DNA of 64,000 bases from Candidatus Omnitrophota bacterium (GTDB taxonomy: Bacteria > Omnitrophota > Gorgyraeia > Zapsychrales > JBDRMG01), in the NCBI GenBank assembly GCA_043812495.1, contig JBDRMG010000018.1, positions 7,651 to 71,650 on the forward strand. Direction: 5' to 3'. Made by a program: the position numbers and the translations under genes. Below the pieces are notes generated by a model. That model was not told where the DNA came from and made no database searches. It saw only the letters and a list, made by a program, of their open reading frames with translations. Shown piece by piece: positions 7,195-26,386 of this stretch (positions are counted from its first letter, which is position 1; the number at the start of each line of letters is the position of its first letter).

Positions 7195-8751
<1,557 letters not shown>

Positions 8752-8754
8752 TTA

Positions 8755-9606
8755 TTATCTCTTCGTCATCATTCTCGCTGTAAAGACTTCGCGCATACTT
8801 TTGTCAATATCGCCTTTTTTGGCCTTGCCAAAAGACATCTGAACACCTTTTTTTTGCTTCTGCATTTTCTGCAAGCTCGATTCTAATTGCTGAGACTGGG
8901 CCGCCGCTTCCGAGATGGCCGTATCATGCAGCATTTCGTAAATACGGCAGACAATCCACATATCGGCCAAGTAACCGATAATATCAACGGGATCAGACTC
9001 TTCAATCACCTTCTCGATGGTCTCCACAAAATCGGCTTGTTTGGTTAAGAGTTCCTCACAAGGAAGCAATTTGACAACGCGAGGTTTTTGTATCATAAAG
9101 TTCTTTGACCAGGGATAGACAACATTCGCTCGGCCGATTTTTCCGGTCATGATTTGTTCGATCAAATGATCCTTGATGTGGATGGCCGTCTCATAGAGCC
9201 CCGTTTCTTCAATATCTTCAAAAACCTTCATCTCGACACCCGGCCTTGCCATCTTAACGGCTCCTTTGCGCCCACAGGCAATCAAGAAAGAGTCTTTGTA
9301 TTTGCTTTGTTCGCTTAAGGCCGCACGGATAACGCGGCTATTCAGATCACCCATAAAGCCCGCTTCCGACGTGATCACCACGATTCCTGTAGCCGGATTG
9401 TCATTGGACACAAGCGGGTGCCTGACCCTTGAAAGACTGATCATGCGGAAAAATTCGACAAAAGACTCCCCAAAACGGGCAAAACGATCTTTTCGGTTGG
9501 CCAGCGTATGAAATTTATTGTCCGCAACGTCTTTAAGAACCTGGATGATTTGAAGCAACTCGATAATATCATCCAGATCGCCTTTAATTTTATTGGCTTT
9601 TCCCAT
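8755..9606 (-). CDS. atpG: F-type ATPase gamma subunit
   Basis: 283 aa. ...VVITSEAGFMGDLN... (the ITSDRGLCG equivalent). C-terminal helix ...REVFTARMM. Sits between the b/delta fusion and beta. Confidence 0.75.
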   Translation of the reverse strand: MGKANKIKGDLDDIIELLQIIQVLKDVADNKFHTLANRKDRFARFGESFVEFFRMISLSRVRHPLVSNDNPATGIVVITSEAGFMGDLNSRVIRAALSEQSKYKDSFLIACGRKGAVKMARPGVEMKVFEDIEETGLYETAIHIKDHLIEQIMTGKIGRANVVYPWSKNFMIQKPRVVKLLPCEELLTKQADFVETIEKVIEESDPVDIIGYLADMWIVCRIYEMLHDTAISEAAAQSQQLESSLQKMQKQKKGVQMSFGKAKKGDIDKSMREVFTARMMTKR

Positions 9607-9621
9607 ACAGCAATCCTTTGA

Positions 9622-10365
9622 TCAAGCGCCTTCGGCTCCTTCTTTTAAACTGACAGAAGTTTCCGTAATCAGATTCTGCAAACTTGCGTCCAAGGCCAAA
9701 CTGCCAAACCGTAAGACCACTCCTCCGATCACCTGAGGATCGACAGTCGTTTTGATATCGATGGTGCGCCCTAATTTCTCTTTAATAATATCGGAAATCT
9801 TTTTCTTGATATCTTCGGGCAAAGTACTTGCAACAATGATTTCCGCTGTTTCGATGTCTTTGCCGATTTGTGTCATGTCCACTTTTGTAAGACTCGCGAT
9901 AAACTCATCGGACAGTTGTTGATTGAGCAGGCCTCTGGCTTTCTCGCTTAAGACCTTCGAAAGTAAATCACCGGCATAGGTAATCATTTTGAGCTCAACT
10001 TCTTTTTTGACCTCAGAGCGCATCTGATCTTTTGTTCTCTGAGCCTTGGCGATGATCTCCTCGCTTTCGAACCTGGCTTTCTTGACAATTTCATCCCGTT
10101 CGGCCTTGGCTTTTTTATCAGCTTTTTCCAGCATCTTTTTGGTCAGTTCATCGGCCTCTTTCTTTCTTTTCTCAAGTTCCTCATTGGCGGCCTTGATCTT
10201 CTGGTCCAATTCTGTTTGCTTGGCCCTGGCTTCTTCCGTTTCGCGGTTAAGCCGTTTGACCGCTCCTTCTGTTTGCGAAACAAAAACATTTCGTAAAGTA
10301 AAAATAATGACACCCACCGCGACGACTTGCAGGAGCATAAATTTAAAGATCCACATCCAGGTCAT
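9622..10365 (-). CDS. F-type ATPase peripheral-stalk fusion: subunit b (TM + coiled coil) fused to delta/OSCP C-terminal domain only
   Basis: N-terminal TM MTWMWIFKFMLLQVVAVGVIIF. About 120 aa of charged coiled coil. C-terminus ...LGRTIDIKTTVDPQVIGGVVLRFGSLALDASLQNLI matches the delta C-terminal domain (E. coli ...[30 protein letters not shown]). The delta N-terminal helical bundle is absent. Confidence 0.75.
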   Translation of the reverse strand: MTWMWIFKFMLLQVVAVGVIIFTLRNVFVSQTEGAVKRLNRETEEARAKQTELDQKIKAANEELEKRKKEADELTKKMLEKADKKAKAERDEIVKKARFESEEIIAKAQRTKDQMRSEVKKEVELKMITYAGDLLSKVLSEKARGLLNQQLSDEFIASLTKVDMTQIGKDIETAEIIVASTLPEDIKKKISDIIKEKLGRTIDIKTTVDPQVIGGVVLRFGSLALDASLQNLITETSVSLKEGAEGA

Positions 10366-10468
10366 AGTTTGTTGCCTCCCAAATTTAGAATAATCATAAT
10401 AACGTTCATGGCAGAAATTATTTCCATTGTAATCATTTCTTAATCATTGCGTTTCGGCGAGAATATGA

Positions 10469-10713
10469 TCACTCGCCAAAACTCGACATCACATGGTAAA
10501 ACGTCAATAACATAGTGACTGAAACACCCTCCACCGCGATGAGCTGAAGCAGAATGCTCATCTGAATAGCCGGTGTTTTACTCGGAAAAAGAGAGATAGC
10601 TGCTTAATCATGCGATAACCGATCCAGGCAATAGACACGCAAGGGACCAGAATCATGAAGGCGATGATGGCAACAAGGACTAATCCTGTTGTTAAGGTCT
10701 CGCTAACAGCCAT
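10469..10713 (-). pseudogene. Second F-type ATPase c-subunit copy interrupted by a 1-nt frameshift in a T5 run
   Basis: Frame 1: MAVSETLTTGLVLVAIIAFMILVPCVSIAWIGYRMIKQLS... stops after 51 codons. Shifting by one nt at the T5 homopolymer (~10586-10596) continues as ...PSKTPAIQMSILLQLIAVEGVSVTMLLTFYHVMSSFGE. Helix 1, helix 2 and the conserved carboxylate E all align to the intact c subunit at 10733..10954. Confidence 0.6.
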
Positions 10714-10732
10714 AGGAAATACCTTCTATAAA

Positions 10733-10954
10733 TTACCTTCCGAACAATTGAAAGATGATTAAAATAGCCATAATAGATATGGCCTCGACAAAAATAAGCA
10801 AAACCACCATCCCCATGAAGATCTTAGAGGCCGCGGATGGATTACGTCCTAAAGCTTTAATAACGGAATAACCCAAGACAGCAATCACAACAGACGGTCC
10901 CATGACCGCAATAAACATAATCGAAATAATGATAAAGGATTCTGCCCAACGCAT
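10733..10954 (-). CDS. atpE: F-type ATPase c subunit (proteolipid)
   Basis: 73 aa. Two TM helices and a polar loop GRNPSAASK. Conserved acidic residue in helix 2 (LLIFVEAISIMAIL). Confidence 0.8.
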   Translation of the reverse strand: MRWAESFIIISIMFIAVMGPSVVIAVLGYSVIKALGRNPSAASKIFMGMVVLLIFVEAISIMAILIIFQLFGR

Positions 10955-10990
10955 ATTTTATTGAATTACACTCCTGTCCATGCCAACCAC

Positions 10991-11317
10991 TTAACCCCCA
11001 TCACCCTCGGGTTTCTCCTGAGCAAAAACAATATCTTCTTCTTTGGTTTTCTTAACCTTCTCCTGCTCTTCCTGTTCGACCAGGACAATGCAATCATTCG
11101 CGAAGAATCGGATGACGCCGCCTCTAATCGGAACCGCTTCTTTCCAATCAATAATGATGCTGCCTTTCTGCAAGATACCCAAAACAGGATAGTGATAGGG
11201 CAGCAATTCATATTCGCCCGTATCTCCCGACAAGAAGACACTATGCACTTCGTTCTCGTAAATGAGCGCATCGGGTGTCATAATCGTTAATTTGAATGTT
11301 CCTTTGTATCGAGCCAT
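10991..11317 (-). CDS. atpC: F-type ATPase epsilon subunit (N-terminal beta-sandwich; short acidic C-terminus)
   Basis: MARYKGTFKLTIMTPDALIYENEVHSVFLSGDTGEYELLPYHYPVLGILQKGSII...GGVIRFFANDCIVLVE aligns with the epsilon N-domain (L.VV.P....F.G.V..V...G..GE.GI.P.H.P.L..L..G). The C-terminal helical hairpin is replaced by an E/K-rich tail. Confidence 0.7.
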   Translation of the reverse strand: MARYKGTFKLTIMTPDALIYENEVHSVFLSGDTGEYELLPYHYPVLGILQKGSIIIDWKEAVPIRGGVIRFFANDCIVLVEQEEQEKVKKTKEEDIVFAQEKPEGDGG

Positions 11318-11662
11318 GTTAAGGAAATATTATAATTGCATTTGCTTGATCCCCGCCCGCCATTGATTCAGTGGCGGGCGGGGTCAAACCCAGCGGGGAA
11401 TCCCCGCCTTTATTTAAGGCGGGGAGGAGAGCAAATACCAGCAACAAAGTTGCTGGTCAAGCTCTGCTTGAAAAACAATTTATCAAGTACCACGGCTGTG
11501 GGTATCTATTTCGGTCATGCACTTATGTTTCCGTCAATTCGATAAAATCGAATTGACGAGACCTCGCTAAATTTTGAGAAAATGTGCGGGCACTATCGTT
11601 CCATAAGCGCGGGCCTCATTGATTAGTAAGAGTTCTTGTTGAGTAGCCTTTCTTTGCAATCG
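11318..11662. repeat. Palindromic repeat cluster inside the atp gene array (family A)
   Basis: 345-bp non-coding gap between atpA and atpC. Contains AATATTATAATTGCATTTGCTTGATCC, hairpin ccccgcccgccattgattcagtggcgggcgggg, cggggaatccccg, and the perfect palindrome cgtcaattcgat-aaa-atcgaattgacg (also at 28243-28269). Confidence 0.7.
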
Positions 11663-13204
11663 TCAGCTCCCTTTCGCCGTTGTCGCCTTATCCAGCGCAT
11701 CCTCCCCCACGCCAACTTCCTCGGCTTCCTCTTCTTCATCCTTGGGTCTTTTAGCTTCCGCTTCTTTAATGTAGTCTTTAATCACGCTCTCGAAACCTTT
11801 GGTGATTTCATCGTCTATTTTTTTTCTTTCGCGCAGGATCTTCAATAGATCCGGATTCTTTTTCTGACAAAAGGGCGCAATTTCATTCTGAAAGGCCTTG
11901 ACCTCGTCAATCGTCAATTGCAACAGAAGTTTCTTAGTGTAGGCATAAAGAACAAAAGCCAGTGCCTCCAGGGAAACCGGGCTATCTTTGTCTTGCTTGA
12001 TGATTTCAGTTAAAATTTCGCCTGTCTTCATCTGTTGCTGGGCTTCTTCGGACTGTCCGGATGATTTTAATTTAGAAACCCGCAATAATTCCCTGAATTG
12101 GATATAATCCAAACGCAAAGAACCGGTGAATTTCTTGATGACAGGCCATTGGACTTTACTTCCGACGCGAGAAACGGAAAGACCGATATCCACGGCGGGC
12201 TTCTGCCCTTCTCCGAAAAGCGGCGTGCTTAACATGATTTGGCCATCGGTCATCGAAATAAGATTCGAGGAAATATATCCCGTCAAATCTCCTTCTAGAA
12301 TTTCGACAATAGGCAAAAATGTCATCGAACCTCCTCCATGGTCTTGGTCCAAGAAGGCGGCTCGCTCAATCATCTTCGAGTGCAAGTAAAAAATATCTCC
12401 CGGATAAGAGTCGCGGCCGGGCGGACGTCCCAATAATAGAGAAATTTCACGATAACACCAGGCATGTTTAGTAAAATCGTCAAAGCCGACAATCACATCT
12501 TTTCCCTGATTCATAAAATGCTCGCCGATAGAACAGGCCACGTAGGGAGCCAAGTATTGTTGTCCGGGCGGACAGGAAGCAGTGGCCGAAACAATGATCG
12601 TGTACCTAAAGCACTCGTGATCTTGGAATAGCTGTACAACCTTAGCTAAGGATGATCTTGATTTTCCGATGCAGCAATAGATACAAACAACATTTTTTCC
12701 CTTTTGATTCAGAATAGTATCTGTAATAATTGTTGTTTTCCCCGTCATTTTGTCGCCAAGAATGAGCTCTCTTTGACCATAACCAATAGGGATCATGGTA
12801 TCCAATACCTTAATCCCAGTCTCTAAAGTTTTACACAAAGGAACTCGGGCCAAAATAGGAGGGGCATTAATAAAAATAGGCGCCATTTTATCATGCTCAA
12901 GAGGCCCTAAGCCGTCAAGCGACTCCCCCAAAGGATTGACAATCCGCCCCAATAATTTGTCGCCAACGGGAACAAGAAACGGCTCCAGAGAAGCGACCGC
13001 CTTATCACCAGTCTTGATCTTCTCTGTCTCCTTAACGATCAGAACCTGGGCCTCGGTCTCGTCAAAACCAATGATGGTTCCTTCTGTCCCATATCCAAAT
13101 TTGATGAGCTGTCCGCTGATGCAGTGTTTAAAACCCGTCACCACAACGATACATCCGCGGATACACCGGACCCGTCCAATCTCTGTATAACGTAAATCTG
13201 CCAT
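11663..13204 (-). CDS. atpA: F-type ATPase alpha subunit (N-terminally truncated, Cys-rich variant)
   Basis: Aligns to canonical alpha from the beta-barrel onward. Walker A GDKMTGKTTIITDTILNQ. ...ATASCPPGQQYLAPYVACSIGEHF..., ...LLLGRPPGRDSYPGDIFYLHSKMIERAA, ...SVSRVGS. The ~30 N-terminal residues that normally bind delta are missing. RBS GGAGC 8 nt upstream of the ATG. Confidence 0.85.
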   Translation of the reverse strand: MADLRYTEIGRVRCIRGCIVVVTGFKHCISGQLIKFGYGTEGTIIGFDETEAQVLIVKETEKIKTGDKAVASLEPFLVPVGDKLLGRIVNPLGESLDGLGPLEHDKMAPIFINAPPILARVPLCKTLETGIKVLDTMIPIGYGQRELILGDKMTGKTTIITDTILNQKGKNVVCIYCCIGKSRSSLAKVVQLFQDHECFRYTIIVSATASCPPGQQYLAPYVACSIGEHFMNQGKDVIVGFDDFTKHAWCYREISLLLGRPPGRDSYPGDIFYLHSKMIERAAFLDQDHGGGSMTFLPIVEILEGDLTGYISSNLISMTDGQIMLSTPLFGEGQKPAVDIGLSVSRVGSKVQWPVIKKFTGSLRLDYIQFRELLRVSKLKSSGQSEEAQQQMKTGEILTEIIKQDKDSPVSLEALAFVLYAYTKKLLLQLTIDEVKAFQNEIAPFCQKKNPDLLKILRERKKIDDEITKGFESVIKDYIKEAEAKRPKDEEEEAEEVGVGEDALDKATTAKGS

Positions 13205-13290: not shown

Positions 13291-14658
13291 TTAAGTTTTT
13301 TCTTCTTCAGGATTCTCTGCTGCCTTCACTTTCTTGATGGTCCCTCCGGCCTTAACGGCCAATTCCTCTCCCATGATTTGAGATTTTTTCCACCACGTAA
13401 AGAAGTGAATGGATGTAAAGAAGACGATAAAGATCAGGATGCCGTAAATAATTCTCCAGGTTGTGGTCATGGTCGGTTTTTTGCCGAAGATCGCTTCCGA
13501 AATAGCCGCGATTCCGCGCAAGGCCTGTAATTTCTGCAGGATATTCGTGACTTTACTATTCTCTAATTTTTCGAGTTTCTTGGCCTTGACCCGCGCCAAC
13601 AATAATTCGAGCTTATCGATTTCTTCTTGAACATCTTTGAACCGCTCTTGATTTGTTCGAAAAGCGCCGATATAACGGCTCATATTCTGACGATTTTGCT
13701 GCGTTTGCTGAATAAGATCAAGCAAATTAAGAATTCTGTCTGAGATAAAACTGGCTCCTCCCTCGTATTCTGAGCCCTCCATTTGCTTAACGATATCTTC
13801 CGTGTGCATGAGAAAGGCGTCAATTTTCTCTTGAGATATTTGCCAAATGTCTTTAATCTCAATGGTGTATTTCTTCTTCTCGTGGGGTCCAAGCTCCTCG
13901 CTTTTTGTTAAATAGGATTGTTGCTTTTCCTGGCTAAAGCGCATATCAAATCCTTGAAGCTCAATAATATGCTCGGCCCTCACTTCTTGAGGCAGAAAAT
14001 GTCTTTGGGTAAACGTTTTTTTCTCATCATAAGGATTCTCGATTTCAATCACAAACCGCACCGTTTGTGTTGTTTCTGTCGCGGGCCGCTGTTCCGATTT
14101 GAAGTAATCGGCAGAGAAGGCATTTTTTCTTATTTTCTCTATCGAATCCACGTTCGCGCGATATTCTTCGATGCGACGCTCGATATTATCCGAATAGTTG
14201 ACCTGCGAGGCAAGGATGCGATCAAGCTTATCGATCATATTTTGCCCTAAAATTCCTGCGCTGGCTTGATAATCCGTCCCTTGAAGTTGGGAAACATTCT
14301 CTTCGATCTGTGTCCTAAGAATGTCCACTTCTTCTTGGGTGATCCGCCAGACATCCTTGACTTCGATTTTAATCGTTTTTGATTCCTTGGGCTGAAGCTC
14401 AACAGTTCCAAAAAGAAAATATTGTGATTTATCTAAGTCGTAATCAAGTTCCAGCCCACCGCTATTAACGACATTATCGGGTGTTATTTCTTTAGGGAGA
14501 GGATATTTGATGGGTTCGGTTTTCGTTTCATCTGGTGAAGCGTTCACGGCAACCAAGTTAATATAGATATTGGCGTAAGTGACATGACTAAAGACAAAGA
14601 CGGAGAGCATGAAGAAAAAAGCAAGAATTGTGTGTTTAAAAAAGATATTTCTCAGCAT
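13291..14658 (-). CDS. Hypothetical secreted, C-terminally membrane-anchored protein with a tandem internal duplication
   Basis: 455 aa. N-terminal signal peptide. Two ~130-aa homologous segments (...VELQPKESKTIKIEVKDVWRITQEEVDILRTQIEENVSQLQGTDYQASAGILG... / ...EELGPHEKKKYTIEIKDIWQISQEKIDAFLMHTEDIVKQMEGSEYEGGASFISD...). Coiled coil, then C-terminal TM WRIIYGILIFIVFFTSIHFFTWW. Confidence 0.55.
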   Translation of the reverse strand: MLRNIFFKHTILAFFFMLSVFVFSHVTYANIYINLVAVNASPDETKTEPIKYPLPKEITPDNVVNSGGLELDYDLDKSQYFLFGTVELQPKESKTIKIEVKDVWRITQEEVDILRTQIEENVSQLQGTDYQASAGILGQNMIDKLDRILASQVNYSDNIERRIEEYRANVDSIEKIRKNAFSADYFKSEQRPATETTQTVRFVIEIENPYDEKKTFTQRHFLPQEVRAEHIIELQGFDMRFSQEKQQSYLTKSEELGPHEKKKYTIEIKDIWQISQEKIDAFLMHTEDIVKQMEGSEYEGGASFISDRILNLLDLIQQTQQNRQNMSRYIGAFRTNQERFKDVQEEIDKLELLLARVKAKKLEKLENSKVTNILQKLQALRGIAAISEAIFGKKPTMTTTWRIIYGILIFIVFFTSIHFFTWWKKSQIMGEELAVKAGGTIKKVKAAENPEEEKT

Positions 14659-14666: not shown

Positions 14667-17600
14667 TTATTCTCCACTTTCAAAATATGTTTTAACGACA
14701 ACGTCTTGTTTCTCGACAGACTCTTTAATGGCAGAAACTTTCACGATAATCTCACTAAGTTTATTGTCGATTTTCGCCGCATCGACAATTGCTCCGCTTT
14801 CAAAAGGTTGAACCTCAACGCCTTCGCCGACCAAACCCACAGCCTTGGCGCTCTCGTTGACAAAATTCGTCAATGTATCAATGATCTCTGCAGCCAATGT
14901 ATTGGATTCGACTTGACTTGCGGAAATCGCTTCTGCGGAAGTCCTCAATTCTGCCATGAGCTTTTGAATATTTCCGACCTTCTCATAAAAGACGTCGGCC
15001 CTCCCTTGAGCGCCGATTTCAGCGCGAATACCTTGGACCTCCTGCAAAACGGCGCCCGCATTGCTTTTGGCCGTATCGATATTATCCGCCATATCGCTTA
15101 AACCCGATAATGAACCAAAGATTGTTGTCGTGTCTGCATCGGCATCTGTTCCCATAAGCGTCTCGACATTTGAAACAGTTGTATCAATAGTATTAATAGT
15201 GCCGAAGAGCGTTGTTGAGCTTGTATCTGTTGAGCTTCCGACCGTTGTTGTCAGAGTACTTAAAGACGTCTTGATGAGTGTAATATCACTTGACAAATTA
15301 ACACCGCTAATATTATTCACAGCATCAAGCACACCGGCGATTTTTCCAAAAAGGGTATTGCTGGAGGACGTGTCGGTGGCCGCGCCAATTAACGTGTTCA
15401 TGTTTTGTACGCTTGTGAGAATGCTTGCGACATTGGCAACCAGAGCACGCGCATTGTCCGCAAGATAGGCGATGTCGCTCCAATTGACGTTCGCATTGCT
15501 CATAAAAGCAAGATCGCTCCAGTTAATCCCGGTCGTGCTTGACGCGCCCATGTCAGTCCAATTGATCCCGGTTCCCGACATATAAGAAATATCAGCCCAG
15601 TTAACCCCGGAATCGGTCATCACATCAATATCGGCCCAGTTGATGCCTGTGTCACTCATGGCATCGATATCGGCCCAGTTGATGCCCGCGTCAGACATCA
15701 CGCCAATATCGGCCCAGTTGATGCCAGCGTCAGACATAATATTGATATCATCCCAATTAATACCGCTTTCGCTTAAAACTTCGATATCTTCCCAATTGAT
15801 GCCTGCTGCGCTAAGATCGCGAATACTGGTCCAATTCACGCCTGCCTTGGTCAAGACATTGATATCTACCCAATTGACCCCTGTCTCACTTAAGACTTGA
15901 AGATCATCCCAGTTGATACCGGCTACAGATAACATCATCATGTCGGTCCAATTAATACCCGCTTGCGCTAATTCTCCCAAATTATCCCAATTAACTCCAG
16001 CCCCTGACATTTCATTAATATTATCCCAGTTGATGCCGGCAGAACTTAAATCATCGATACTTGTCCAATTTATCCCCTTATCAGACATAATCTGAATATC
16101 ATCCCAGTTGATTCCTTTGTCTGATAGGACATCAATATCTGCCCAGTTGATGCCGGCATCCGAAAGGACATCAATATCCGCCCAGTTGATGCCGGCATCC
16201 GACATGTCGTTGATGCTGGTCCAGTTGATGCCTTTATCGCTCAAGACATCGATATCCGCCCAGTTAATACCCGTGTCCGAGAGGACATCCAAGTCCGCCC
16301 AGTTGATGCCAGCATCCGACATGTCGTTGATGCTGGTCCAGTTGATGCCCTTATCCGAAAGCACATCGATATCGGCCCAATTGATGCCCGCATCGCTCAT
16401 GACATCTAAGTCTGCCCAGTTGATGCCGGCACCAGAAAGAACCTGCCAATCCGCCCAATTGACGCTGGCCTTGGTCATGATCTCCAGGTCATACCAATTT
16501 AGGCCTGCATCGCTCATAAGATCCAGGTCGTTCCAATTGACGCCGGCTGTGGTTAATTCAGCTAGATTATCCCAATTCACCTGCTCGGTCCAGTTGACAC
16601 CTGATCCGGTCATATAGGCTAAGTCGTACCAGTTGACCGCGGCCTCGCTCATATACTCGAGGTCTTCCCAGTTGATGCCGGCGTCCGAGAGGACATCCAA
16701 GTCCGCCCAGTTGATACCCGCATCCGAAAGGACATCGATATCCGCCCAGTTGATGCCTTTATCACTCATGACATCGATATCCGCCCAGTTGATGCCTTTT
16801 TCGCTCATGGTATAAATGTCTGTCCAGTTGACGCCGGCGGTGGTCAGGTCATAGAGGTCGTCCCAGTTGACACCGGCATCGGACATTTCCGCGATATCGT
16901 CCCAGTTGATGCCGCCTAAGGTCAACTCCTCAATATCGGTCCAGTTGATGCCTTCGGTCGTGAGGACGTTCAAATCCGTCCAGTTGACACCTTTTGTGGT
17001 CAAGACCGCCATATCGGTCCAATTGATGCCTTTTTTGGTCATGATTTGGATATCGTCCCAATTGGCCTTGTCGATTTCGGTATAAATCGCCGCGACTTGG
17101 GTGTTGATGTCCGTCGCGTAATCCAAGATTTGACCGATTTGTTTTGCCGCGGATACGTTTAATGCAAAAGAACCGCCGTAAGCGGTCGTACAGGTTATTG
17201 TTGGTTGCGCAAAATAGGTATAATCTTCATCGGCCGGCGTCCATCCTGAATAACTAAAAACATCCACGTCAAGATTCCGGTAAGTCATGCTTTTGTCATT
17301 GCAGCTACCGGAACAGCCGGTTGTTACGGCAAGCGTGTTTGGGTCAACAATATCTAATGTGGCTGAGCAGCCTGAAAGGTCTTGCGGTACACCGTTTTTC
17401 TCAAGCCAGGAAATCACATTGAACGCCCCTGCCGTATCTTCATAAATCAAATACCCTTTTATTTCATAGATATCCGTGCCGCCAGGATTATAGAAAATGT
17501 AAAACGTATTGGAATCGCAGGTAATGCTTGTATCAGTGCTCAAAGTCGCACGTAAACTATAATTAACACCAGGGTTATCTATATTGATTCCATCACCCGT

Positions 17601-18641
17601 AAAATCCGCCACGCCATCCACCAGATTCATGGAACAGGTGCCGCTGGTACAGACCGCGCCGGCATCCACAAGCGTGCCGTTGGCCGGATTATTTAAGATC
17701 GTAAAACTCATGGAATCATCCGACCACGTTCCTATGGAGATTGTTTCGGGATTATCGTTGTAAAGAGTGATAATAGGCTGGGGGGCAAAAGCGGTGTCTT
17801 CGATTGTATCGGGAATCGTGTTCCAACCGCAGCTAGCGGGTGTGGTATCCATCAACGGCGTCCAGGCCATAGCGCTCGAATAGGATAAGAAGGTATTGCC
17901 AAATGCGTAACATCCTGCCGGAAGGCACGAACAACTCAAACTATTGTCGTTTTGACTATAATCTCTTGCTGTGCTAAAGTTAAAGCTATTCCCATCTGAT
18001 TTATCGTCAAAAGGCCAATAGGCTTGAAGATTGGCAGGGCGTATTTGAAGGGGCATCCCCTTGATGTAGGATTTATAAAGCAAGCCAACATCTGTTGAAT
18101 TTAATTCTGTGTTCCAAATGGCTAATTCGGTTACCCGACCATCGAAAAACTGGCCAGCAGATCCGCTTTGACCAAAAGAGAGGGTGGTTGAACTAGTATT
18201 AACTGCTAATGAACAATTATTCGTTCCCTGGCTAACGCCATTGACATACCACGTAATGGTGTCTGGGGTTGCATCCACATCCCGAACGGCTACGATGTGT
18301 TGCCAAGCTGTTGTTGCTGTATATGAACTTGTGCAGTCTGCGCCATCTTGATGCATAAAAACGAGGTTTGCTAATCCGTCCCAGCCGATGCCAAAGTTAC
18401 CCGTTCTACCGGCCGCTGTTCCTTTAATGAGAACTGTTGTTGCGGAAGCCACGGTATCGGGTTCAATCCAAAGACTAATGGTCATGTCCCCTGCGATTTG
18501 AAGAGAAGCGTCGTTCGCTTCGGTGCAAGAGTCGGAACCGTCCATTTCAATCATAGCAAAGCATAGACGACTGCTTAGAAAAAAGGCCGTAGCGATGATT
18601 GAGATGCTAAGCCAAATTTTGAGATTTTTTGATTTGATCAC
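14667..18641 (-). CDS. Giant secreted surface/adhesin-like protein: LamG/ConA-like lectin domain + Cys-rich region + ~42 x 13-residue INW-repeat array + C-terminal TLFG repeats
   Basis: 1324 aa. Signal peptide. LamG-like segment (…WQHIVAVRD…WYVNG…FFDGRVTELAIWNTELNSTDV). Long array of units like SDAGINWADIDVL. Three C-terminal D(T)SSTTLFGxI... repeats. Acidic, Thr/Ser-rich. Confidence 0.7.
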   Translation of the reverse strand: MIKSKNLKIWLSISIIATAFFLSSRLCFAMIEMDGSDSCTEANDASLQIAGDMTISLWIEPDTVASATTVLIKGTAAGRTGNFGIGWDGLANLVFMHQDGADCTSSYTATTAWQHIVAVRDVDATPDTITWYVNGVSQGTNNCSLAVNTSSTTLSFGQSGSAGQFFDGRVTELAIWNTELNSTDVGLLYKSYIKGMPLQIRPANLQAYWPFDDKSDGNSFNFSTARDYSQNDNSLSCSCLPAGCYAFGNTFLSYSSAMAWTPLMDTTPASCGWNTIPDTIEDTAFAPQPIITLYNDNPETISIGTWSDDSMSFTILNNPANGTLVDAGAVCTSGTCSMNLVDGVADFTGDGINIDNPGVNYSLRATLSTDTSITCDSNTFYIFYNPGGTDIYEIKGYLIYEDTAGAFNVISWLEKNGVPQDLSGCSATLDIVDPNTLAVTTGCSGSCNDKSMTYRNLDVDVFSYSGWTPADEDYTYFAQPTITCTTAYGGSFALNVSAAKQIGQILDYATDINTQVAAIYTEIDKANWDDIQIMTKKGINWTDMAVLTTKGVNWTDLNVLTTEGINWTDIEELTLGGINWDDIAEMSDAGVNWDDLYDLTTAGVNWTDIYTMSEKGINWADIDVMSDKGINWADIDVLSDAGINWADLDVLSDAGINWEDLEYMSEAAVNWYDLAYMTGSGVNWTEQVNWDNLAELTTAGVNWNDLDLMSDAGLNWYDLEIMTKASVNWADWQVLSGAGINWADLDVMSDAGINWADIDVLSDKGINWTSINDMSDAGINWADLDVLSDTGINWADIDVLSDKGINWTSINDMSDAGINWADIDVLSDAGINWADIDVLSDKGINWDDIQIMSDKGINWTSIDDLSSAGINWDNINEMSGAGVNWDNLGELAQAGINWTDMMMLSVAGINWDDLQVLSETGVNWVDINVLTKAGVNWTSIRDLSAAGINWEDIEVLSESGINWDDINIMSDAGINWADIGVMSDAGINWADIDAMSDTGINWADIDVMTDSGVNWADISYMSGTGINWTDMGASSTTGINWSDLAFMSNANVNWSDIAYLADNARALVANVASILTSVQNMNTLIGAATDTSSSNTLFGKIAGVLDAVNNISGVNLSSDITLIKTSLSTLTTTVGSSTDTSSTTLFGTINTIDTTVSNVETLMGTDADADTTTIFGSLSGLSDMADNIDTAKSNAGAVLQEVQGIRAEIGAQGRADVFYEKVGNIQKLMAELRTSAEAISASQVESNTLAAEIIDTLTNFVNESAKAVGLVGEGVEVQPFESGAIVDAAKIDNKLSEIIVKVSAIKESVEKQDVVVKTYFESGE
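15470..17075. repeat. In-frame 39-bp tandem coding repeats (~42 copies) encoding the 13-aa INW(A/T)D(I/L)DV(L/M)SD(A/K)G unit
   Basis: Visible as a periodic DNA run (…gatatcggcccagttgatgcc(g/t)gcatccga(a/g)agga/cat…). It produces the spurious plus-strand ORFs 15640-17085 in the ORF track. Near-identical copies make this region prone to assembly collapse or expansion. Confidence 0.8.
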
Positions 18642-18665: not shown

Positions 18666-19232
18666 TTAATTGGTTGTGTATTCTAGCGAAAAGGCCCGGA
18701 GCTCCAAATCACCTGTGGCCGTATCATCGGCATCATCGTGGTCTCGATTGACTCTAATAATCACTAAATCATTAGCGGCCACGCTATCGGCATTGGTCAA
18801 TGTAATGCTGATTTCATCGATAATTCCTGCCGTCCCCGGAACAGCCGTTCCCCCTGAGACTTCATTGACCGCATCAAAGCTTGCCGTGTCCGGATCGCTT
18901 TCGCCAACTGTTAAGGCCATCACTTCCACTTCTAAATCTACATTACCGCTCGTGGCCGATGCCATCGTATAGATTAATTTGGCACTCAAGGCAGAAGAAT
19001 AATTGGTCGGCATACGGAACATCCATGTCGCGCTTTCTGTCTGTGTCGTTGAAAACAGCAAATTCCAAGACGCGCTTGTTCCGTCTATCCTTGCTGAGTT
19101 TGTTATATAAGAACCGTATATTCTTGCCGCATGAACCGGAAGGATCATTGTGCTCGTTGTTCCCGCAAAACTATTAATCGCTGGGGTCATCCATAAGAAG
19201 AAAATAACAAATAAAAAAAGTCTTTTTTTCAT
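18666..19232 (-). CDS. Secreted hypothetical protein, paralogue 1 of a tandem triplet
   Basis: 188 aa. Signal peptide (…INSFA|GTTSTMILPV). Shares with 19294..19869 and 19899..20489 the motifs GT(T/A)xT(x)ILP(V/I)..A, SW(R/N)LLF, (Q/T)(D/N)Y(S/F)S, KL(L/I)Y(T/S)M(A/V)S(A/T)TSG(K/N)VD(M/L)EV(E/Y)V(M/H)AL, ESDPD(T/S)A, AANDLVIIRVNRDHDD.DDT and the C-terminus DLELRA(F/V)(S/T)LEYT(T/S)N. Confidence 0.6.
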   Translation of the reverse strand: MKKRLFLFVIFFLWMTPAINSFAGTTSTMILPVHAARIYGSYITNSARIDGTSASWNLLFSTTQTESATWMFRMPTNYSSALSAKLIYTMASATSGNVDLEVEVMALTVGESDPDTASFDAVNEVSGGTAVPGTAGIIDEISITLTNADSVAANDLVIIRVNRDHDDADDTATGDLELRAFSLEYTTN

Positions 19233-19293
19233 TGATTCTCCTTAGCGCTATCCATTCTTTTTTTCATACAAAGATTCTTCCTAGAGCCATGCC

Positions 19294-19869
19294 TTATCTA
19301 TTTGATGTGTATTCTAAAGTCACTGCCCTCAGTTCTAAATCCGTTGTTGCCGTATCGTCACTATCGCTGGGATCTCTCTTGATTCTCAAACGGACCCAAT
19401 CATTGGCAGCCATACTATCGTCATTGGCTAACGAAATGCTTATCTCATCTAAGATGCCGGCTGTTCCGGGGACGGTTGTCCCCCCCAAAACTTCATTGAG
19501 AGAATCAAACTGAACGGCGGAGTCCGGATCGCTTTCATCATCGGAAAGGGCGTGCACATAGACCTCCATATCGACTTTTCCGCTTGTCGCTGATACCATT
19601 GTATACAATAACTTGATGACAGGAGCGGAAGAATAATCTTGCGGTAGAGCAAATATAAACTCGACTATTTCCCCCAATGATGTTCCATCAAATAACAGGC
19701 GCCAGGCTCCGTTTTGAGCATCCAGGTTGGGAAGATTTGTCATTCCATGAAATTTTGCGGCTTCGATGGGTAATATCAGCGTTGCTGTCGCTGTCCCGGC
19801 ATAAGCCGCTCGGTTAAAAAGACCCACCGATATCAATGTGAACATGAATAAAAAGATATAACGTTTCAC
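19294..19869 (-). CDS. Secreted hypothetical protein, paralogue 2 of a tandem triplet
   Basis: 191 aa. Signal peptide (…NRAAYA|GTATATLILPI). Same conserved blocks and C-terminal LELRAVTLEYTSNR. Confidence 0.6.
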   Translation of the reverse strand: MKRYIFLFMFTLISVGLFNRAAYAGTATATLILPIEAAKFHGMTNLPNLDAQNGAWRLLFDGTSLGEIVEFIFALPQDYSSAPVIKLLYTMVSATSGKVDMEVYVHALSDDESDPDSAVQFDSLNEVLGGTTVPGTAGILDEISISLANDDSMAANDWVRLRIKRDPSDSDDTATTDLELRAVTLEYTSNR

Positions 19870-19898
19870 GCGATCTCCTTATGTTTAATTCGTTATAT

Positions 19899-20489
19899 TT
19901 AATTCGTTGTATATTCCAATGAAAATGCTCTAAGTTCTAGGTCACTGGCGGAGGTATCATCAATGTCGTCATGATCTCTGTTGACTCTAATAATCACTAA
20001 ATCATTAGCGGCTACGCTATCGTCATTGGTTAATGTTATGCTAATGGTATCGATTTTCCCGAGTGTTGTCGGCACGGTTGTTCCTCCTGAGATCTCATTG
20101 ACCGCACCAAAACTCGCTGTGTCTGGATCGCTTTCGCCATCTGTTAAGGCCATGACTTCGACTTCCATATCTACTTTATTAGTCGTGGTTGACACCATTG
20201 AGTAAAGCAATTTAGCTGTTAATCCGGAGAAATAGTTTTGTGGCATCCGGAACTGCCACGCAGCGCTTTCGGTTTGAGTATCGTCAAACAATAATCTCCA
20301 TGACAAAGTTGAGTTATTGTCAATTCTTGCAGGATTGGTAATGAAGCTACCGTTGATTTTGGCAGTTTCAACGGGTAGAACAATGGTTGCGGTGGTCCCG
20401 GCGTATATACAACGCGCGGTGATTAAGAACAAAACATTAATTACTATTATTAAAGTTATTAAAGTAATCAATAGAATTCGTTTTGTCAC
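19899..20489 (-). CDS. Secreted hypothetical protein, paralogue 3 of a tandem triplet
   Basis: 196 aa. GTG start (rc of cac at 20487-20489) preceded by AAGGAGGG. Signal peptide (…ITARCIYA|GTTATIVLPV). Same conserved blocks and C-terminal LELRAFSLEYTTN. Confidence 0.6.
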   Translation of the reverse strand: MTKRILLITLITLIIVINVLFLITARCIYAGTTATIVLPVETAKINGSFITNPARIDNNSTLSWRLLFDDTQTESAAWQFRMPQNYFSGLTAKLLYSMVSTTTNKVDMEVEVMALTDGESDPDTASFGAVNEISGGTTVPTTLGKIDTISITLTNDDSVAANDLVIIRVNRDHDDIDDTSASDLELRAFSLEYTTN

Positions 20490-20788: not shown

Positions 20789-21859
20789 CTAAAACGGCGT
20801 ATCGATGATGGAGTCAATGGTTGTTTTTAACGCCAATTTTGCTTCCAAAATCTTCTCCTTGACCAGATACGCGTCATCGGCCTCGGGTTCCAGGTACAGG
20901 TACATCTGATAATGCTCGATGGCGGTTTCATAATCCTGCAAGAACTCCCCGCTGATAAACGCCAAATTGTAATGCGCGCTTGCGTCGAAGGGTAAGAGCT
21001 CTATCACGCGCATATACTCCAAAGCGGCCTGGGTAAATTTCTTTTGCTCAAAAAAAGTATTGCCCAGATTGTAATGGAGCTTGGCCGAGTCTTCCAAAAG
21101 GCGTTTATTTTCCTGCCTGAGTTCCGTGATTTTTGAGGCGGCCTTGCGGGCCGTGCTTTCGACTTTGTGAAGCGTCTTTCTTGTTTTGTCCCGCAATTCC
21201 TTCTGGGTCTCTTTTTCGGCGGATGTGTGCTTCTTGTCCTTGAGGGTCGGCAAGATCTCCTGGATGGTGACGAGATCCTCCTTTTCTTGCTGAATTTTTT
21301 CTTTCTCCGTAACTTCAAGAGTTTCCTGAAATTGTTTCTCCTTCTGATCGAGGAGATTTCTTAATTCCTTGATTTGCGTCTCATATTTGCTTTGCATGGC
21401 ATCCAATTCCTGCAGTTGTCTCGATAAGTCGTCGCGCTGACGGCTGAGGGCATTGATGCGGTTGGAACGGATCTCTGTCTGACCGCGCAGGGACCCAATC
21501 TCTTTTTCTACCGATTCCTTCTCATCGATCAATCTTTTATTTTCCTCGATCATGTTTTTGAGGCTTTCATTGATCATAAGGATTTGCTTTTCTTCAACGG
21601 AAAGCTCAGCATCGGCCTTTTGGCCTTGCGGTAAGACAGCCTCTTTGCCCCCTACGGGTTCTTCGGAAAGAATCATCTGGTCCAAACCAATTTCTGTTTG
21701 AATCAGTTCTCCTTGCATATCATCTTCCTGAACGCCAAGGTCTTCCTGCTGAGCCCACAGGGCCGGCAGCGCAGCTACGCACAAACCTATCATGCAGGTC
21801 AAAAGGCAAAATGCCCAAAGCCAGATTTTCCCTCTCCAACCTTTCCGCTTTTTTTCCAT
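20789..21859 (-). CDS. Membrane-anchored coiled-coil + TPR protein (MshN/PilF-like secretin-associated protein)
   Basis: Start set to internal MEKKRKGWRGKIWLWAFCLLTCMIGL (signal/anchor), preceded by AGGATAAG. The longer 382-aa ORF would run through the intergenic repeat element. About 200 aa of coiled coil. C-terminal TPR-like AKLHYNLGNTFFEQKKFTQAALEYMRVIELLPFDASAHYNLAF...AIEHYQMYLYLEPE. Confidence 0.6.
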   Translation of the reverse strand: MEKKRKGWRGKIWLWAFCLLTCMIGLCVAALPALWAQQEDLGVQEDDMQGELIQTEIGLDQMILSEEPVGGKEAVLPQGQKADAELSVEEKQILMINESLKNMIEENKRLIDEKESVEKEIGSLRGQTEIRSNRINALSRQRDDLSRQLQELDAMQSKYETQIKELRNLLDQKEKQFQETLEVTEKEKIQQEKEDLVTIQEILPTLKDKKHTSAEKETQKELRDKTRKTLHKVESTARKAASKITELRQENKRLLEDSAKLHYNLGNTFFEQKKFTQAALEYMRVIELLPFDASAHYNLAFISGEFLQDYETAIEHYQMYLYLEPEADDAYLVKEKILEAKLALKTTIDSIIDTPF

Positions 21860-21875
21860 AATCTTATCCTTTTTT

Positions 21876-21977
21876 GAAATATTATGATTGTATTTGCTTG
21901 ATCCCCAGAGTCCGCCACTGATTGAGCGGCGGGACATCCGTAAGTCGCGGCCTCATTAAGATTTGTTTAATATTCTT
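21876..21977. repeat. REP/MITE-like element (family A) between secretin and TPR genes
   Basis: AAATATTATGATTGTATTTGCTTGATCCCC + ccgccactgattgagcggcgg hairpin + ...cggcctcattaag. Confidence 0.65.
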
Positions 21978-23609
21978 TCACTTGCGTAAATCAATTGTCT
22001 TTTGGCGATAATCTTTCATGGGTTTAATCGAACCGCGCCACTCATCGTAGGGTTCGGTCGCCTGGACGATGTGCGGCGTAATAAAGATTACGATTTCCGT
22101 ATTTGTGATGGTATCGCTTTTGCTGCCAAAAAGATTGCCCACAAAAGGAATATCCATTAAGAACGGTATTCCTTTTTTAATTCCGCTTTTGTCTGCCTTT
22201 TTCAGGCCGCCTAAGATCACCGTGTTTCCGTCTTTGACCATGACGGTCGTCTCCACAAGTGTTTTGTTGACCTGCGGAATACCGCCGCCTTGCGAACTGA
22301 TTCTGGCGACAACCGTTGAGATCTCGGGCAAAAGACGCATCGTGACATAACCGTCATCATTGATTGTCGGTGTGACATTCAATTTCAAACCCACATCCAC
22401 AAAGCGCACGTCTTCTGAAGTGATGGCATTGTCTCCTGTACCCGATGTTGTAGAAATAATATAGGGCACGGTATCCCCGATATGGATTTTGGCCTCTTCA
22501 TTATTGGTCACCAGAAGTTTTGGATTCGATAAAATACGCGTATCGCTGATCTGCTTGAGAGCGCGCAAAGACATTTGAAAGGCATCCTGCGTAAAGTTGC
22601 CCACAGCGACCTTGCTGAACATGGAATAGAGATTGTCGCTCGTGGATAAATTGCTTTCATCCAAAAAGGCATTATTAAAGGAGACTTTTTTGATCTCATC
22701 GTCCGCGCTGTATCTGAAGTCCAGATTCCAATCCACGCCTGCATCAAACTGGGGCTTAAAGGTCAATTGCAAAACACGCGCCTCAATCATGACTTCCTTG
22801 GTTTTGACATCCAGGCTTTTCACTAATTCATCCACATCCTTGCGCCGGCCCGGAAAGGCGCGGACAATGAGCTGATTGGAGCGTTCGTCGGCCACAACAG
22901 AACCCACGGCATTGGCATCGATGCGGCTTCTTAATTTTTCCGCGACCACATCGGCCTTGGCGTATTGCAGATTGTAAATATACGTTTCCAGGGGTTTTTC
23001 GATTTGGATGATGGCCTCTTTCATTCGCGCGATGGCCTCGGGCGTATCGATCATCACAACCGAACCCGTATCCTCATCAATGATAATTTTGCCCAGATTG
23101 CTTTTGATATTATCCAGGGTTGCCAGCGCATAGCTGGGCTTGGCGTAATCCAGATGAACGATGCTCACCTGAGAACGGTCATTGAATTTGCGACCATACA
23201 TTTCCTGGTATTCGGCCTCGGACATGACAAAGATGATTTCATTCTGGAGCGTATACGCTAGGCCGTTGGAAATCAAAATGATGTCCAAGACATCTTCGAT
23301 CGAAACGCTTTGCAGATACAGGGTGATGCGGCCGCCCACGGCCCGGGAGGTGACCACATTGAATTCGCCTTTGAGCGCCAGAAATTTAATGACATCGATG
23401 ATGTTCATGTCGCGCACATCCAGGGTGATTTTGCGCTCCAGGCGTTTTTCGAGAGCATCCTGAACATTTTTGGACTTGATGGGAATCGGGGCTTCGATCA
23501 GTTCTTGATCTAATTCTTGAGCATACGCTACGGTGCATGCCCATAGGATCGCCGTCAGACACAATGTCCGACACAAAACATTCATTCTGCTTTTGTGTAT
23601 TTTTCTCAT
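21978..23609 (-). CDS. gspD: Secretin (GspD/MshL/PilQ family outer-membrane channel)
   Basis: 543 aa. Signal peptide. N0-type domain. C-terminal secretin domain ...NPKLLVTNNEEAKIHIGDTVPY...VGLKLNVTPTINDDGYVTMRLLPEIS...VMVKDGNTVILGGL...IPFLMDIPFVGNLFGS...EIVIFITPHIV. Confidence 0.9.
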   Translation of the reverse strand: MRKIHKSRMNVLCRTLCLTAILWACTVAYAQELDQELIEAPIPIKSKNVQDALEKRLERKITLDVRDMNIIDVIKFLALKGEFNVVTSRAVGGRITLYLQSVSIEDVLDIILISNGLAYTLQNEIIFVMSEAEYQEMYGRKFNDRSQVSIVHLDYAKPSYALATLDNIKSNLGKIIIDEDTGSVVMIDTPEAIARMKEAIIQIEKPLETYIYNLQYAKADVVAEKLRSRIDANAVGSVVADERSNQLIVRAFPGRRKDVDELVKSLDVKTKEVMIEARVLQLTFKPQFDAGVDWNLDFRYSADDEIKKVSFNNAFLDESNLSTSDNLYSMFSKVAVGNFTQDAFQMSLRALKQISDTRILSNPKLLVTNNEEAKIHIGDTVPYIISTTSGTGDNAITSEDVRFVDVGLKLNVTPTINDDGYVTMRLLPEISTVVARISSQGGGIPQVNKTLVETTVMVKDGNTVILGGLKKADKSGIKKGIPFLMDIPFVGNLFGSKSDTITNTEIVIFITPHIVQATEPYDEWRGSIKPMKDYRQKTIDLRK

Positions 23610-24373
23610 AGTTTCAACACCCGCTCCTCGTTTTCATACGTCAGGATGATCCGGTCGGCATAGATAGTTTTAATGGCCACATCATTAATTGTTTCGCCTT
23701 GTTTGAGGAAAAATGTCACTTGGCTTACGGTATTTTCAATCATGGCCGATGCCGATTCCGGGGTCTCGGACCAGGAGATCCCCACCAGCTTTAGGTCTTT
23801 GGTCATTGTTTCTATTTCACTGGCCTGAAGCTCGACAATGAGATCTTCGGTCGGCTTTTTCTTCTCATAAGGCTGAAACAGGTTGCGCCGTTTAAAATTC
23901 TCCAGGTAGTCGCTGATTTGCTTGATCGGAAGAAGCGCCATTATCATTTGCCCTTTTTGATTTTGGTCGACTTCAAAAATTACCTTTCCTTTGACGGACT
24001 TGAAATCTTTGATGACGTTGATCGTCAGAATCACCGCTGTGACCATGACTATGACACCTAAGAGGTGATTGATTTCTTTTAATCCTAAAGACAACGAGGC
24101 GGGGAATTGCGGAGGCTTTCCTTTGAGCAAATCCATCAGGGGCGATAAAAAAGACGGAAGATTGAGGGGTGGCAACCCTGTTCCTTTGACGGCTTGAGCT
24201 ACTTGCTGGGCCGCATCCTGGCTTTGAGGCGCCGGAGACGCCTGAGGCTGAGGTTGAGCTTGAGGCGATTGCGGGGTTTGCGGAGCTTGCTGGGCTTGGG
24301 CGGCTTGCTCTTGCTGGCCCTGGCTTTCAATGATTTTTAAAAGTTTTTGTTCAGCGGTTTCTTTTTTGGCCAT
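23606..24373 (-). CDS. Bitopic Q/P-rich inner-membrane protein, putative GspC/PilP-like secretin-interacting component
   Basis: 255 aa. Cytoplasmic Gln/Pro-rich N-terminus, single TM (LLGVIVMVTAVILTINVI), ~130-aa periplasmic domain. Stop overlaps the secretin start (translational coupling). Assignment is by topology and context only. Confidence 0.4.
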   Translation of the reverse strand: MAKKETAEQKLLKIIESQGQQEQAAQAQQAPQTPQSPQAQPQPQASPAPQSQDAAQQVAQAVKGTGLPPLNLPSFLSPLMDLLKGKPPQFPASLSLGLKEINHLLGVIVMVTAVILTINVIKDFKSVKGKVIFEVDQNQKGQMIMALLPIKQISDYLENFKRRNLFQPYEKKKPTEDLIVELQASEIETMTKDLKLVGISWSETPESASAMIENTVSQVTFFLKQGETINDVAIKTIYADRIILTYENEERVLKL

Positions 24374-24384
24374 GGCTCATTTTC

Positions 24385-26378: not shown

Positions 26379-26386
26379 TTATTTTC

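Follow-up and report, generated by a model that had tools for sequence, protein, structure and literature searches.

The 64,000-nt stretch of a Candidatus Omnitrophota genome analysed here (contig JBDRMG010000018.1, assembly GCA_043812495.1; the window) encodes on its minus strand a protein with a long array of a 13-residue unit built around an Asn-Trp pair (the NW repeat). Our analysis pointed to a Sec-exported, elongated fibre with a variable head, an NW coiled-coil rod and a helical C-terminus, which would belong to an Omnitrophota-specific family and have an adhesive role; we put the probability of this reading at about 0.55. Omnitrophota are uncultured, ultra-small bacteria thought to be attached to, or to prey on, other microbes, and the finding bears on the question of how they get to their hosts and stay attached. 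We file the protein under repetitive surface fibres or adhesins, as one built from an undescribed 13-residue unit and placed within a conserved, lineage-specific machine.

Within the array, 42 Asn-Trp dipeptides were spaced by 13 residues in 40 of the 41 intervals and by 6 residues in the remaining one. The period given in the initial annotation was therefore exact, but its count of about 42 copies became 41 full units and one half unit. The 6-residue interval marks a stutter at which a lone hexad precedes a full unit. The consensus in the window, G-[IV]-N-W-x-D-[IL]-x-x-[LM]-[ST]-D-A, was scored on 39 regular units: N3 and W4 were present in all 39, which bore out the strict conservation claimed for this pair, I/V2 and L/M10 in 38 each, S/T11 in 37, G1 in 36 and D6 in 33. 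The N-glycosylation sequon N-W-S/T occurred in 13 of the 42 units, and a glycosylation reading was set aside because the Asn is invariant whatever residue comes next.

The repeat had no real match in Pfam, NCBIfam or PHROGs, or in the Protein Data Bank (PDB) by sequence and profile searches, in agreement with the initial impression that it belongs to no named family. The RTX, pentapeptide, LRR and HEAT repeats, with periods of 9, 5, ~24 and ~40 residues against 13 in the NW array, gave no profile match. Several candidate matches were rejected as spurious: Ntox33 in Pfam (42 bits over the whole protein) summed sub-threshold repeat matches with no single stretch passing, the same summation accounted for Lysostaphin_N (13.1 bits against a cut-off of 60), CutC reached 11.6 bits against 23.3, a 'flagellin' match in the PDB profile search was a concatenated myc tag repeating every 13 residues, and the LDL-receptor YWTD matches in that search were weak. 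In contrast to this lack of a known family, an exhaustive HMMER search with the array segment as query against 1.84 billion representatives returned 340 matches at E<=1e-3 and 107 at E<=1e-10, and about 130 of the retrieved proteins had at least four NW motifs. The named relatives came almost all from Candidatus Omnitrophota or Omnitrophica and were labelled 'hypothetical protein', apart from two labelled 'carboxypeptidase-like regulatory domain'; many were cut at contig ends. Low-identity matches without NW (P0047, P0048 and the repeat-rich P0030 and P0100; BlaR1/M56 and TPR proteins) reflected periodicity or composition and fell outside the family. A scan of species-representative genomes yielded 24 loci, mostly in metagenome-assembled genomes of Omnitrophota, with some labelled 'uncultured Planctomycetales' that had identical synteny. 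The NW family seems confined to ultra-small Omnitrophota and their viruses.

The window gene is a short member of this large family. The smallest complete member found (P0008) had 23 units, four loci (L006, L010, L015, L016) had 273-276, L026 and L020 had 334 and 350 at spacing 13, and the 7133-aa stretch of L012, open at either end, contained 549 with this spacing. L012 and L015 overlap (contig JADFZK010000004.1, 19764-49005), and their merged open frame of at least 9747 aa, whose 5' end was not reached, contained 731 NW units with spacing 13 in 729 of 730 intervals, 622 distinct unit sequences and a mean DNA identity of 56%. Copy number across genomes therefore ranged from 23 to at least 731, a range of at least 30-fold. 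Both ends of the array, namely the lead-in, the lone-hexad stutter and the last four units, were positionally conserved between genomes, which indicated that array length changes in the middle. The stutter motif was also visible in P0005, P0006, P0008, P0009 and P0014, and a single 6-residue spacing in P0007, P0012, P0014, P0154, P0157, L014, L018 and L025. Hundreds of diverged units kept in perfect 13-residue register pointed to a structural constraint, or strong selection, on the period.

The nature of this constraint was approached with a family profile of 4490 units at spacing 13 (62 runs in 26 sequences; 2925 unique units). The profile reads G (87%), [IV] (97%; I 58%, V 39%), N, W, x, D (73%), hydrophobic (100%), x, x, [LM] (92%), [ST] (94%), x, small, with N (15%), S (6%) and E (2%) also found at position 6, and position 10 hydrophobic in 99% of the unique units. 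Positions 5, 8, 9 and 12 were the most variable (3.1-3.5 bits), and each unit held about four large hydrophobic residues. The strongest covariation within the unit linked positions 6-9, 8-12, 8-9, 9-12, 5-8 and 7-11, mostly at i+3 or i+4; this is the signature of a helix, and the unit is accordingly helical. An AlphaFold2 monomer model of a 10-unit block (alignment A2, non-overlapping 10-unit blocks in 16 in-register rows) likewise placed one short helix in each unit, starting at the Trp, with a loop between. The check proposed in the initial annotation, a model of 6-10 repeats, was informative to this extent, but it delivered no confident fold. In the best reading, the unit consists of a hexad, G-I-N-W-x-D (positions 1-6), and a coiled-coil heptad, I-x-x-L-S-x-x (7-13), with a at position 7 and d at position 10. 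With this assignment the variable positions 5, 8, 9 and 12 coincided with b, c and f. After the last hexad, NVNWSD, the sequence ran on as IAYLADN, ARALVAN, VASILTS and VQNMNTL, a run of four canonical heptads that keeps the register; its helix was the most confident part of the C-terminal model, with a predicted local distance difference test score (pLDDT) of 83-89. The conserved 6-residue spacing corresponded to a hexad without its heptad.

A combination of this kind is known from α/β coiled coils, in which six residues inserted into a trimeric heptad coiled coil form a β-layer (Hartmann et al. 2016; PMC4786415). In that work, insertions of 2 or 6 residues into the heptad frame gave layers spaced by 6, 9 or 13 (7+6) residues, the β3 position was a helix N-cap (D/N/T/S) followed three residues later, at g, by D/E/Q, β1 and β2 were hydrophobic with β2 small, position e was broadly K/R, and β-layers were also found in adhesin stalks and phage tail fibres. 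Both spacings seen in the window are among those described. The unit-defining Asn would be the N-cap, with an acid three residues on, Ile or Val suits β2, and the flanks behave as coiled coil, with hydrophobic a and d, variable b, c and f, and heptads in register after the last unit. The NW array therefore resembled the known examples (the Thermosinus Tcar0761 nonads, Actinobacillus OMP100 and the Streptococcus prophage tail-fibre hyaluronidase 2C3F; PMC4786415) in its period of a heptad plus six, its Asn N-cap with Asp three residues on, its a/d and b/c/f pattern, its in-register ordinary heptads, its lone hexad and its use in a fibre, including phage-encoded proteins. It differed from them in that the known motif has hydrophobic and Lys/Arg residues where the NW unit has Gly at β1 and an invariant Trp at e, that a regular 13-residue array is not described in PMC4786415, and that known arrays have 4-14 layers compared with 41 to at least 731 NW units, each a putative layer. 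An oligomeric α/β-type coiled coil is thus the leading, though not demonstrated, structural model for the array; the oligomeric state and the β-layer geometry would follow from this likeness.

The remainder of the protein was in keeping with the layout of a fibre. According to the open reading frame (ORF) listing, the frame is uninterrupted and real, and NCBI lists a 100% identical protein, P0001, under the name 'LamG domain-containing protein [Candidatus Omnitrophota bacterium]'. That entry has 1292 aa; it starts 32 codons downstream of the GTG and hence lacks the signal peptide, a caveat on the start, and no clear Shine-Dalgarno sequence was seen upstream of either start. The GTG at 18641 is the start we infer, the segment in question being 18546-18641: the peptide encoded there reads as a Sec signal, in which a basic n-region and a hydrophobic core precede a small-x-small site, comparable to the N-termini of the homologues P0005 and P0154. 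The N-terminal LamG-like domain noted initially was confirmed by PF13385, whose profile was matched over positions 2-150 of 151 with 75.5 bits (cut-off 27.6) and an E-value of 6.5e-21. The Cys-rich segment and the C-terminal TLFG repeats were likewise real: besides its 11 Cys, the region between LamG and array includes an Ig-like segment and leads into the array by a short helical stretch, the array itself has no Cys, and the C-terminal domain combines the four heptads with long helices and three 'IGxxxDxxxxxT(L/I)FG' motifs. The middle region matched the pre-array parts of P0007, P0008, P0010, P0039, P0083, P0114 and P0156 (phmmer E 6.5e-8 to 1.9e-22). The N-terminal region varied between homologues: the window protein has LamG, P0005 has Ig_Rha78A_N, and no domain was recognised in P0154 or P0008; Pfam found no LamG in any of these three homologues. 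In contrast, the C-terminal domain (alignment A3, 15 sequences) was conserved, including a 'VVVKT(W/Y)FE' motif (VVVKTYFE in the window protein) that is followed by only 2-3 residues. AlphaFold2 modelled this domain as all-helical. Pfam reported no family for it, with only a weak ATG17_like match, and a Foldseek search of the model against the PDB gave nothing at E<=1e-3, only generic helical bundles that were disregarded.

Genomic context is the main clue to the fibre gene. From window position 155 to ~25326 every gene lies on the minus strand, in the order AAA ATPase, GspC-like protein, secretin, TPR protein, three small secreted proteins, fibre, a 455-aa protein (p455), F-type ATPase set, T2SSE, T2SSF, Peptidase_MA_2, T2SSG, two N-methyl proteins and T2SSK (Table 1). 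The gene for p455 stood directly 3' of the fibre gene in all 11 loci that reach the fibre 3' end (tblastn E 4e-66 to 9e-147) and also adjoined P0154 and P0008. Wherever sequence extended further, the order p455, α-like, ε, c, b/δ, γ, β, MshE, GspF was kept, and in the loci reaching the fibre 5' side the secretin and TPR genes preceded it, as did GspC and AAA ATPase genes where the sequence reached them. The p455 protein has a signal peptide, an exported part of ~380 aa with two DVW/DIW modules, a C-terminal transmembrane helix and a short charged tail; its homologues (alignment of 11 sequences) share the signal peptide, an INxxAVN start, both modules, the helix and the charged tail, and neither Pfam, NCBIfam nor PHROGs gave a match to it. 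The three small secreted proteins of ~190 aa had no family assignment; in other Omnitrophota their slot holds one or two secreted proteins of ~530-570 aa, with FGE-sulfatase domains where Pfam annotation exists. The ATPase genes (7195-13204) stand in an unusual order, and no ORF the size of an a subunit was listed among them, which suggests that the canonical proton path may be missing.

Seymour et al. (2023; PMC10066038) describe a pilus and F-ATPase locus of Omnitrophota that is linked to host-cell attachment, in which a 'symbiotic' type 2/3 F-type ATPase is co-located with pilus genes, and they liken it to the Mycoplasma gliding machinery. The window holds exactly such a locus. In all loci examined, the fibre gene and p455 separate the secretin/TPR part from the ATPase part; these two genes are undescribed in the passages of PMC10066038 found by term searches. 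Passages found in the same way in Seymour et al., West-Roberts et al. and a 2026 preprint on Omnitrophota long proteins mention neither the repeat nor p455, and literature searches for a 13-residue repeat returned nothing relevant.

NW repeats also occurred in viruses. Six proteins (P0060, P0068, P0126, P0161-P0163) carry NW repeats with periods of 10-13, together with a C-terminal domain homologous to the three small secreted proteins of the window (31-35% identity; phmmer E 1e-12 to 1e-24). Upstream of P0162 lie genes for a large terminase and a decoration protein together with capsid-sized genes, and P0162 was found unchanged on an IMG/VR viral contig. P0161 probably also lies on a viral contig: a degenerate two-unit DNA pattern detected one further such contig, equal in length to that of P0161. 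The sharing of both repeat and small-protein domain points to an exchange of modules between host fibres and phage receptor-binding proteins. The window protein itself did not behave as a phage tail fibre: it had no PHROG match, its neighbours are cellular secretion and ATPase genes, and only distant relatives, P0162 and probably P0161, lie on viral contigs.

A fibre of head, stalk and anchor fits the variable N-terminus and conserved C-terminus, a rod whose length differs between genomes, and the location of the gene, which has secretin genes on one side and a bitopic membrane protein on the other. From N- to C-terminus such a fibre would comprise a target-binding head (LamG and the Cys-rich, Ig-like region), the NW rod and the conserved helical domain. 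In each unit the Asn would cap the following helix and the Asp close the capping box, and the heptad, [ILV]-x-x-[LM]-[ST]-x-x, would present hydrophobic residues at a and d, making the array a segmented coiled-coil rod, most likely trimeric and of α/β type, with a break every 13 residues. Rod length would be set by the number of units, at a rise that we guess at ~1.5-2 nm per unit, and would in turn set the reach. The fibre is probably exported through the neighbouring secretin, or assembled at the secretin/pseudopilus machinery encoded alongside, as adjacency and the published reading of the locus suggest. The C-terminal domain would then hold it at the envelope, with the co-transcribed bitopic p455 as the likely anchor, while the variable head would project outward and bind the surface of a partner cell, perhaps helped by the small secreted proteins; a coupling of the fibre to the F1-like ATPase may be envisaged on the same two grounds. 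The adhesin or host-interaction role proposed in the initial annotation fits the conserved place in the secretin/pseudopilin cluster, the variable N-terminal region and the presence of the repeat in virus-encoded proteins. A more specific proposal, possible but on balance doubtful, is that the array forms a continuous α/β coiled coil with a β-layer every 13 residues, serves as a length-adjustable extracellular tether or leg of the Omnitrophota secretin-pseudopilus-F1-like-ATPase machine, and is a module exchanged with phage tail fibres. If true, this would be the first natural fibre with a 13-residue period; its 731 or more layers, extending to the micrometre scale, would also make it by far the longest, and the invariant Trp and Gly would replace the usual Lys/Arg and hydrophobic layer residues.

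Several observations weighed against the reading as an oligomeric, machine-linked adhesive fibre. The putative β1 position is Gly in 87% of units and so not hydrophobic, position e is an invariant Trp instead of K/R, inter-unit covariation was weak and did not discriminate between packing models, and the packing in the 10-unit model was not confident (pLDDT 47, predicted TM-score 0.25). In addition, the LamG head is specific to the window orthologue, so a lectin function cannot be generalised to the family, and gene adjacency is the sole link between the fibre and the secretion/ATPase machinery.

The main alternative is a single-chain rod in which each unit contributes a two-turn helix and a loop to a stacked, short-period α-solenoid, possibly of a new fold, lacking oligomer and β-layers and acting as an exported spacer or adhesin stalk. 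The one helix and one loop per unit drawn by AlphaFold2 are what such a solenoid would show, Gly1 and Trp4 lie outside the canonical β-layer rules, and about four large hydrophobic residues in 13 could form an intramolecular core. We nevertheless consider it unlikely: the monomer model showed no confident packing (pLDDT 47), the heptad part of the unit shares its register with the canonical heptads that follow, the conserved lone hexad has no helix part at all, and relatives occur in viral structural modules, whose fibres are normally trimeric.

A second alternative accepts export but not anchoring and takes the protein for a freely released substrate of a type II-like system, used as matrix, coat or decoy. 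The Sec signal peptide, the location among GspC, GspD, GspE, GspF, GspG and GspK homologues, and the finding of no transmembrane segment, lipobox or barrel anchor in the fibre protein are all compatible with release. This alternative is rendered improbable by the strictly conserved C-terminal domain with its VVVKT(W/Y)FE motif, which suggests a retained protein-protein contact, by the bitopic membrane protein that is always adjacent, and by orthologues of at least 9747 aa, which could hardly fold in the periplasm before export.

The two remaining alternatives can be dismissed more briefly. A β-solenoid or Ca2+-binding acidic rod of RTX or antifreeze type, the fold suggested in the initial annotation, would suit the very acidic window array (97 Asp/Glu against 14 Lys/Arg, net charge -83) and its consensus D6, D8 and D12, but it is very improbable, since the acidic D-x-D core noted in the window is not a family trait (D6 alone is conserved, D8 and D12 occur in 23% of units each and are replaced by K, T or S in many orthologues), predicted secondary structure and i+3/i+4 covariation indicate helices, and Pfam reported no RTX or other β-solenoid family. 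Equally remote is the notion of an assembly artefact, or of a recently expanded, unstable repeat with a meaningless recorded copy number, to which the many homologues cut at contig ends and a three-unit 117-bp higher-order repeat in the array centre (82% matched, Tandem Repeats Finder) might seem to point: assembly collapse is unlikely because the DNA units are only 59% identical on average, and array ends and stutter keep their positions between genomes. The near-identity of the 39-bp DNA repeats assumed initially was in fact not found, with at least 95% identity in 1 of 741 pairs, Tandem Repeats Finder matches of 67-83% and copies shifted by 264 nt at 61-73%; the look of recent duplication was confined to the central units (aa 739-856). 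Copy number does vary between genomes, as had been suspected, though not on the ground of near-identity.

The fibre was also compared with other known systems. Trimeric autotransporter adhesins such as YadA and BadA likewise combine a variable N-terminal head, a length-variable repetitive rod and a conserved C-terminus, but the fibre showed no sign of a YadA-type β-barrel, its C-terminus having no Pfam family and being modelled as all-helical, and its gene, accompanied by one for a separate membrane protein, belongs to a secretin/pseudopilin cluster, which is not a type Vc arrangement. The giant RTX adhesins (LapA/MpIBP) and the Archaeovorins and Dockerin-type giants of Omnitrophota (bioRxiv 10.1101/2023.11.21.568195) are alike in being very long, repeat-rich and predicted to be extracellular, in coming from ultra-small or surface-attached bacteria and in being often encoded near type II secretion-like genes. 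Their repeats are ~100-aa Ig-like, dockerin/TSP3 or HEAT units compared with 13 aa in the NW unit. The Omnitrophota giants are defined by many transmembrane regions with SecA-DEAD domains, or by dockerin and TSP3 repeats; the fibre had no transmembrane regions and no Pfam match to SecA, dockerin or RTX. The legs of Mycoplasma mobile, a mechanical link between an ATPase and a surface protein, offer a mere analogy for the fibre locus. MSHA pilus clusters contain MshQ, a large LamG-containing protein. The fibre resembles it as a large LamG-bearing protein encoded with MshE-, MshL-, MshM- and MshN-like genes; an NCBIfam scan of the fibre protein gave no relevant match at E<=0.1, to MshQ or any other family, and LamG does not define the NW family because it is absent from orthologues.

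Taken together, these results identify a conserved and apparently undescribed component of the pilus and F1-like-ATPase locus proposed for host contact, with a rod that varies at least 30-fold in length between genomes while the 13-residue period is kept almost without error. The fibre can now be targeted in enrichment cultures with antibodies, cryo-tomography and proteomics, and the NW repeat, left unsolved by AlphaFold2 as a monomer, may broaden the rules by which coiled coils are built.

Table 1 Fibre gene, its parts and the surrounding secretion and ATPase genes in the window
Feature	Position	Strand	Details and basis
NW-repeat fibre gene	14667-18641	minus	1324 aa; GTG start; stop codon 14667-14669; ORF list
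Predicted Sec signal peptide	18555-18641	minus	aa 1-29; MIKSKNLKIWLSISIIATAFFLSSRLCFA; read from sequence
LamG / concanavalin-like lectin domain	18087-18539	minus	aa 35-185; Pfam Laminin_G_3 PF13385
Cys-rich β-type middle region	17070-18074	minus	aa 190-524; composition and phmmer
NW array	15444-17069	minus	aa 525-1066; 41 full 13-residue units and one half unit
Stutter (lone hexad, then full unit)	16545-16601	minus	aa 681-699; GVNWTE then QVNWDNLAELTTA; 6-residue spacing
Conserved C-terminal helical domain	14670-15443	minus	aa 1067-1324; alignment A3, AlphaFold2
Upstream machinery overall	20789-25326	minus	same order upstream of orthologues in L001, L014, L017, L023, L024, L025
AAA ATPase (MshM/ExeA-like)	24385-25326	minus	Pfam, NCBIfam
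GspC-like	23606-24373	minus	Pfam, NCBIfam
Secretin	21978-23609	minus	Pfam, NCBIfam
TPR protein	20789-21937	minus	Pfam, NCBIfam
Three paralogous small secreted proteins	18666-20489	minus	188, 191, 196 aa; ORFs directly upstream of fibre gene
p455	13291-14658	minus	455 aa; starts 8 nt past fibre gene end
F-type ATPase operon, non-canonical	7195-13204	minus	Pfam, small ORFs, synteny
α-like	11663-13204	minus	
ε	10991-11317	minus	
c subunit	10733-10954	minus	
51-aa membrane peptide	10558-10713	minus	
b/δ fusion	9622-10365	minus	
γ	8755-9606	minus	
β-like	7195-8736	minus	
Secretion/pilus motor and filament genes	155-7030	minus	Pfam
T2SSE with MshEN and PilZ domains	4808-7030	minus	MshE-like, 740 aa; Pfam
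T2SSF	3576-4784	minus	Pfam
Peptidase_MA_2 protein	2747-3556	minus	Pfam
T2SSG pseudopilin	2283-2771	minus	Pfam
Two N-methyl proteins	1856-2407, 1201-1809	minus	Pfam
T2SSK	155-1204	minus	Pfam

Some features of the locus deserve mention in their own right. The MshEN domain at the N-terminus and the PilZ domain at the C-terminus of the T2SSE protein are two predicted c-di-GMP-binding modules; the Pfam list of its 567-aa homologue in L001 has no PilZ. The Peptidase_MA_2 gene, between T2SSF and the major pseudopilin gene, is an unusual member of a secretion/pilus cluster. Immediately upstream of the secretion cluster (25389-28129, minus strand) are two family-2 glycosyltransferases, separated in the window by a methyltransferase; the glycosyltransferases are syntenic in L001 (1573-3692) and may modify a product of the locus. 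Plus-strand ORFs of 86-169 aa inside the array (15061-15468, 15640-15900, 16108-16617) encode repetitive peptides of their own and look like by-products of the repeat codon pattern, with nothing to support their status as genes.

Three further observations come from outside the window. On the complete chromosome OY759724.1 the open NW stretches L020 (3346980-3360633) and L026 (29545-42590) flank the sequence origin and might be one gene of ~56 kb. A second architecture was found in P0024, P0029 and P0088, in which an N-terminal GLUG/Peptidase_M26_N-like region is followed by ~8-12 NW units and then by CARDB, Flg_new_2, Ig-like or fn3 domains, which indicated that the NW unit is a mobile module not confined to the locus protein. 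Finally, a 26-residue unit, GVRGIKPEYVKxMKEAGFSxDEIxEL, is repeated in long arrays at the C-termini of the BlaR1/M56-type membrane proteins P0047, P0057 and P0076; it is also readable as two 13-mers of the form 'G-hydrophobic-polar-x-x-acid plus heptad', a possible remote structural analogy to the NW unit.

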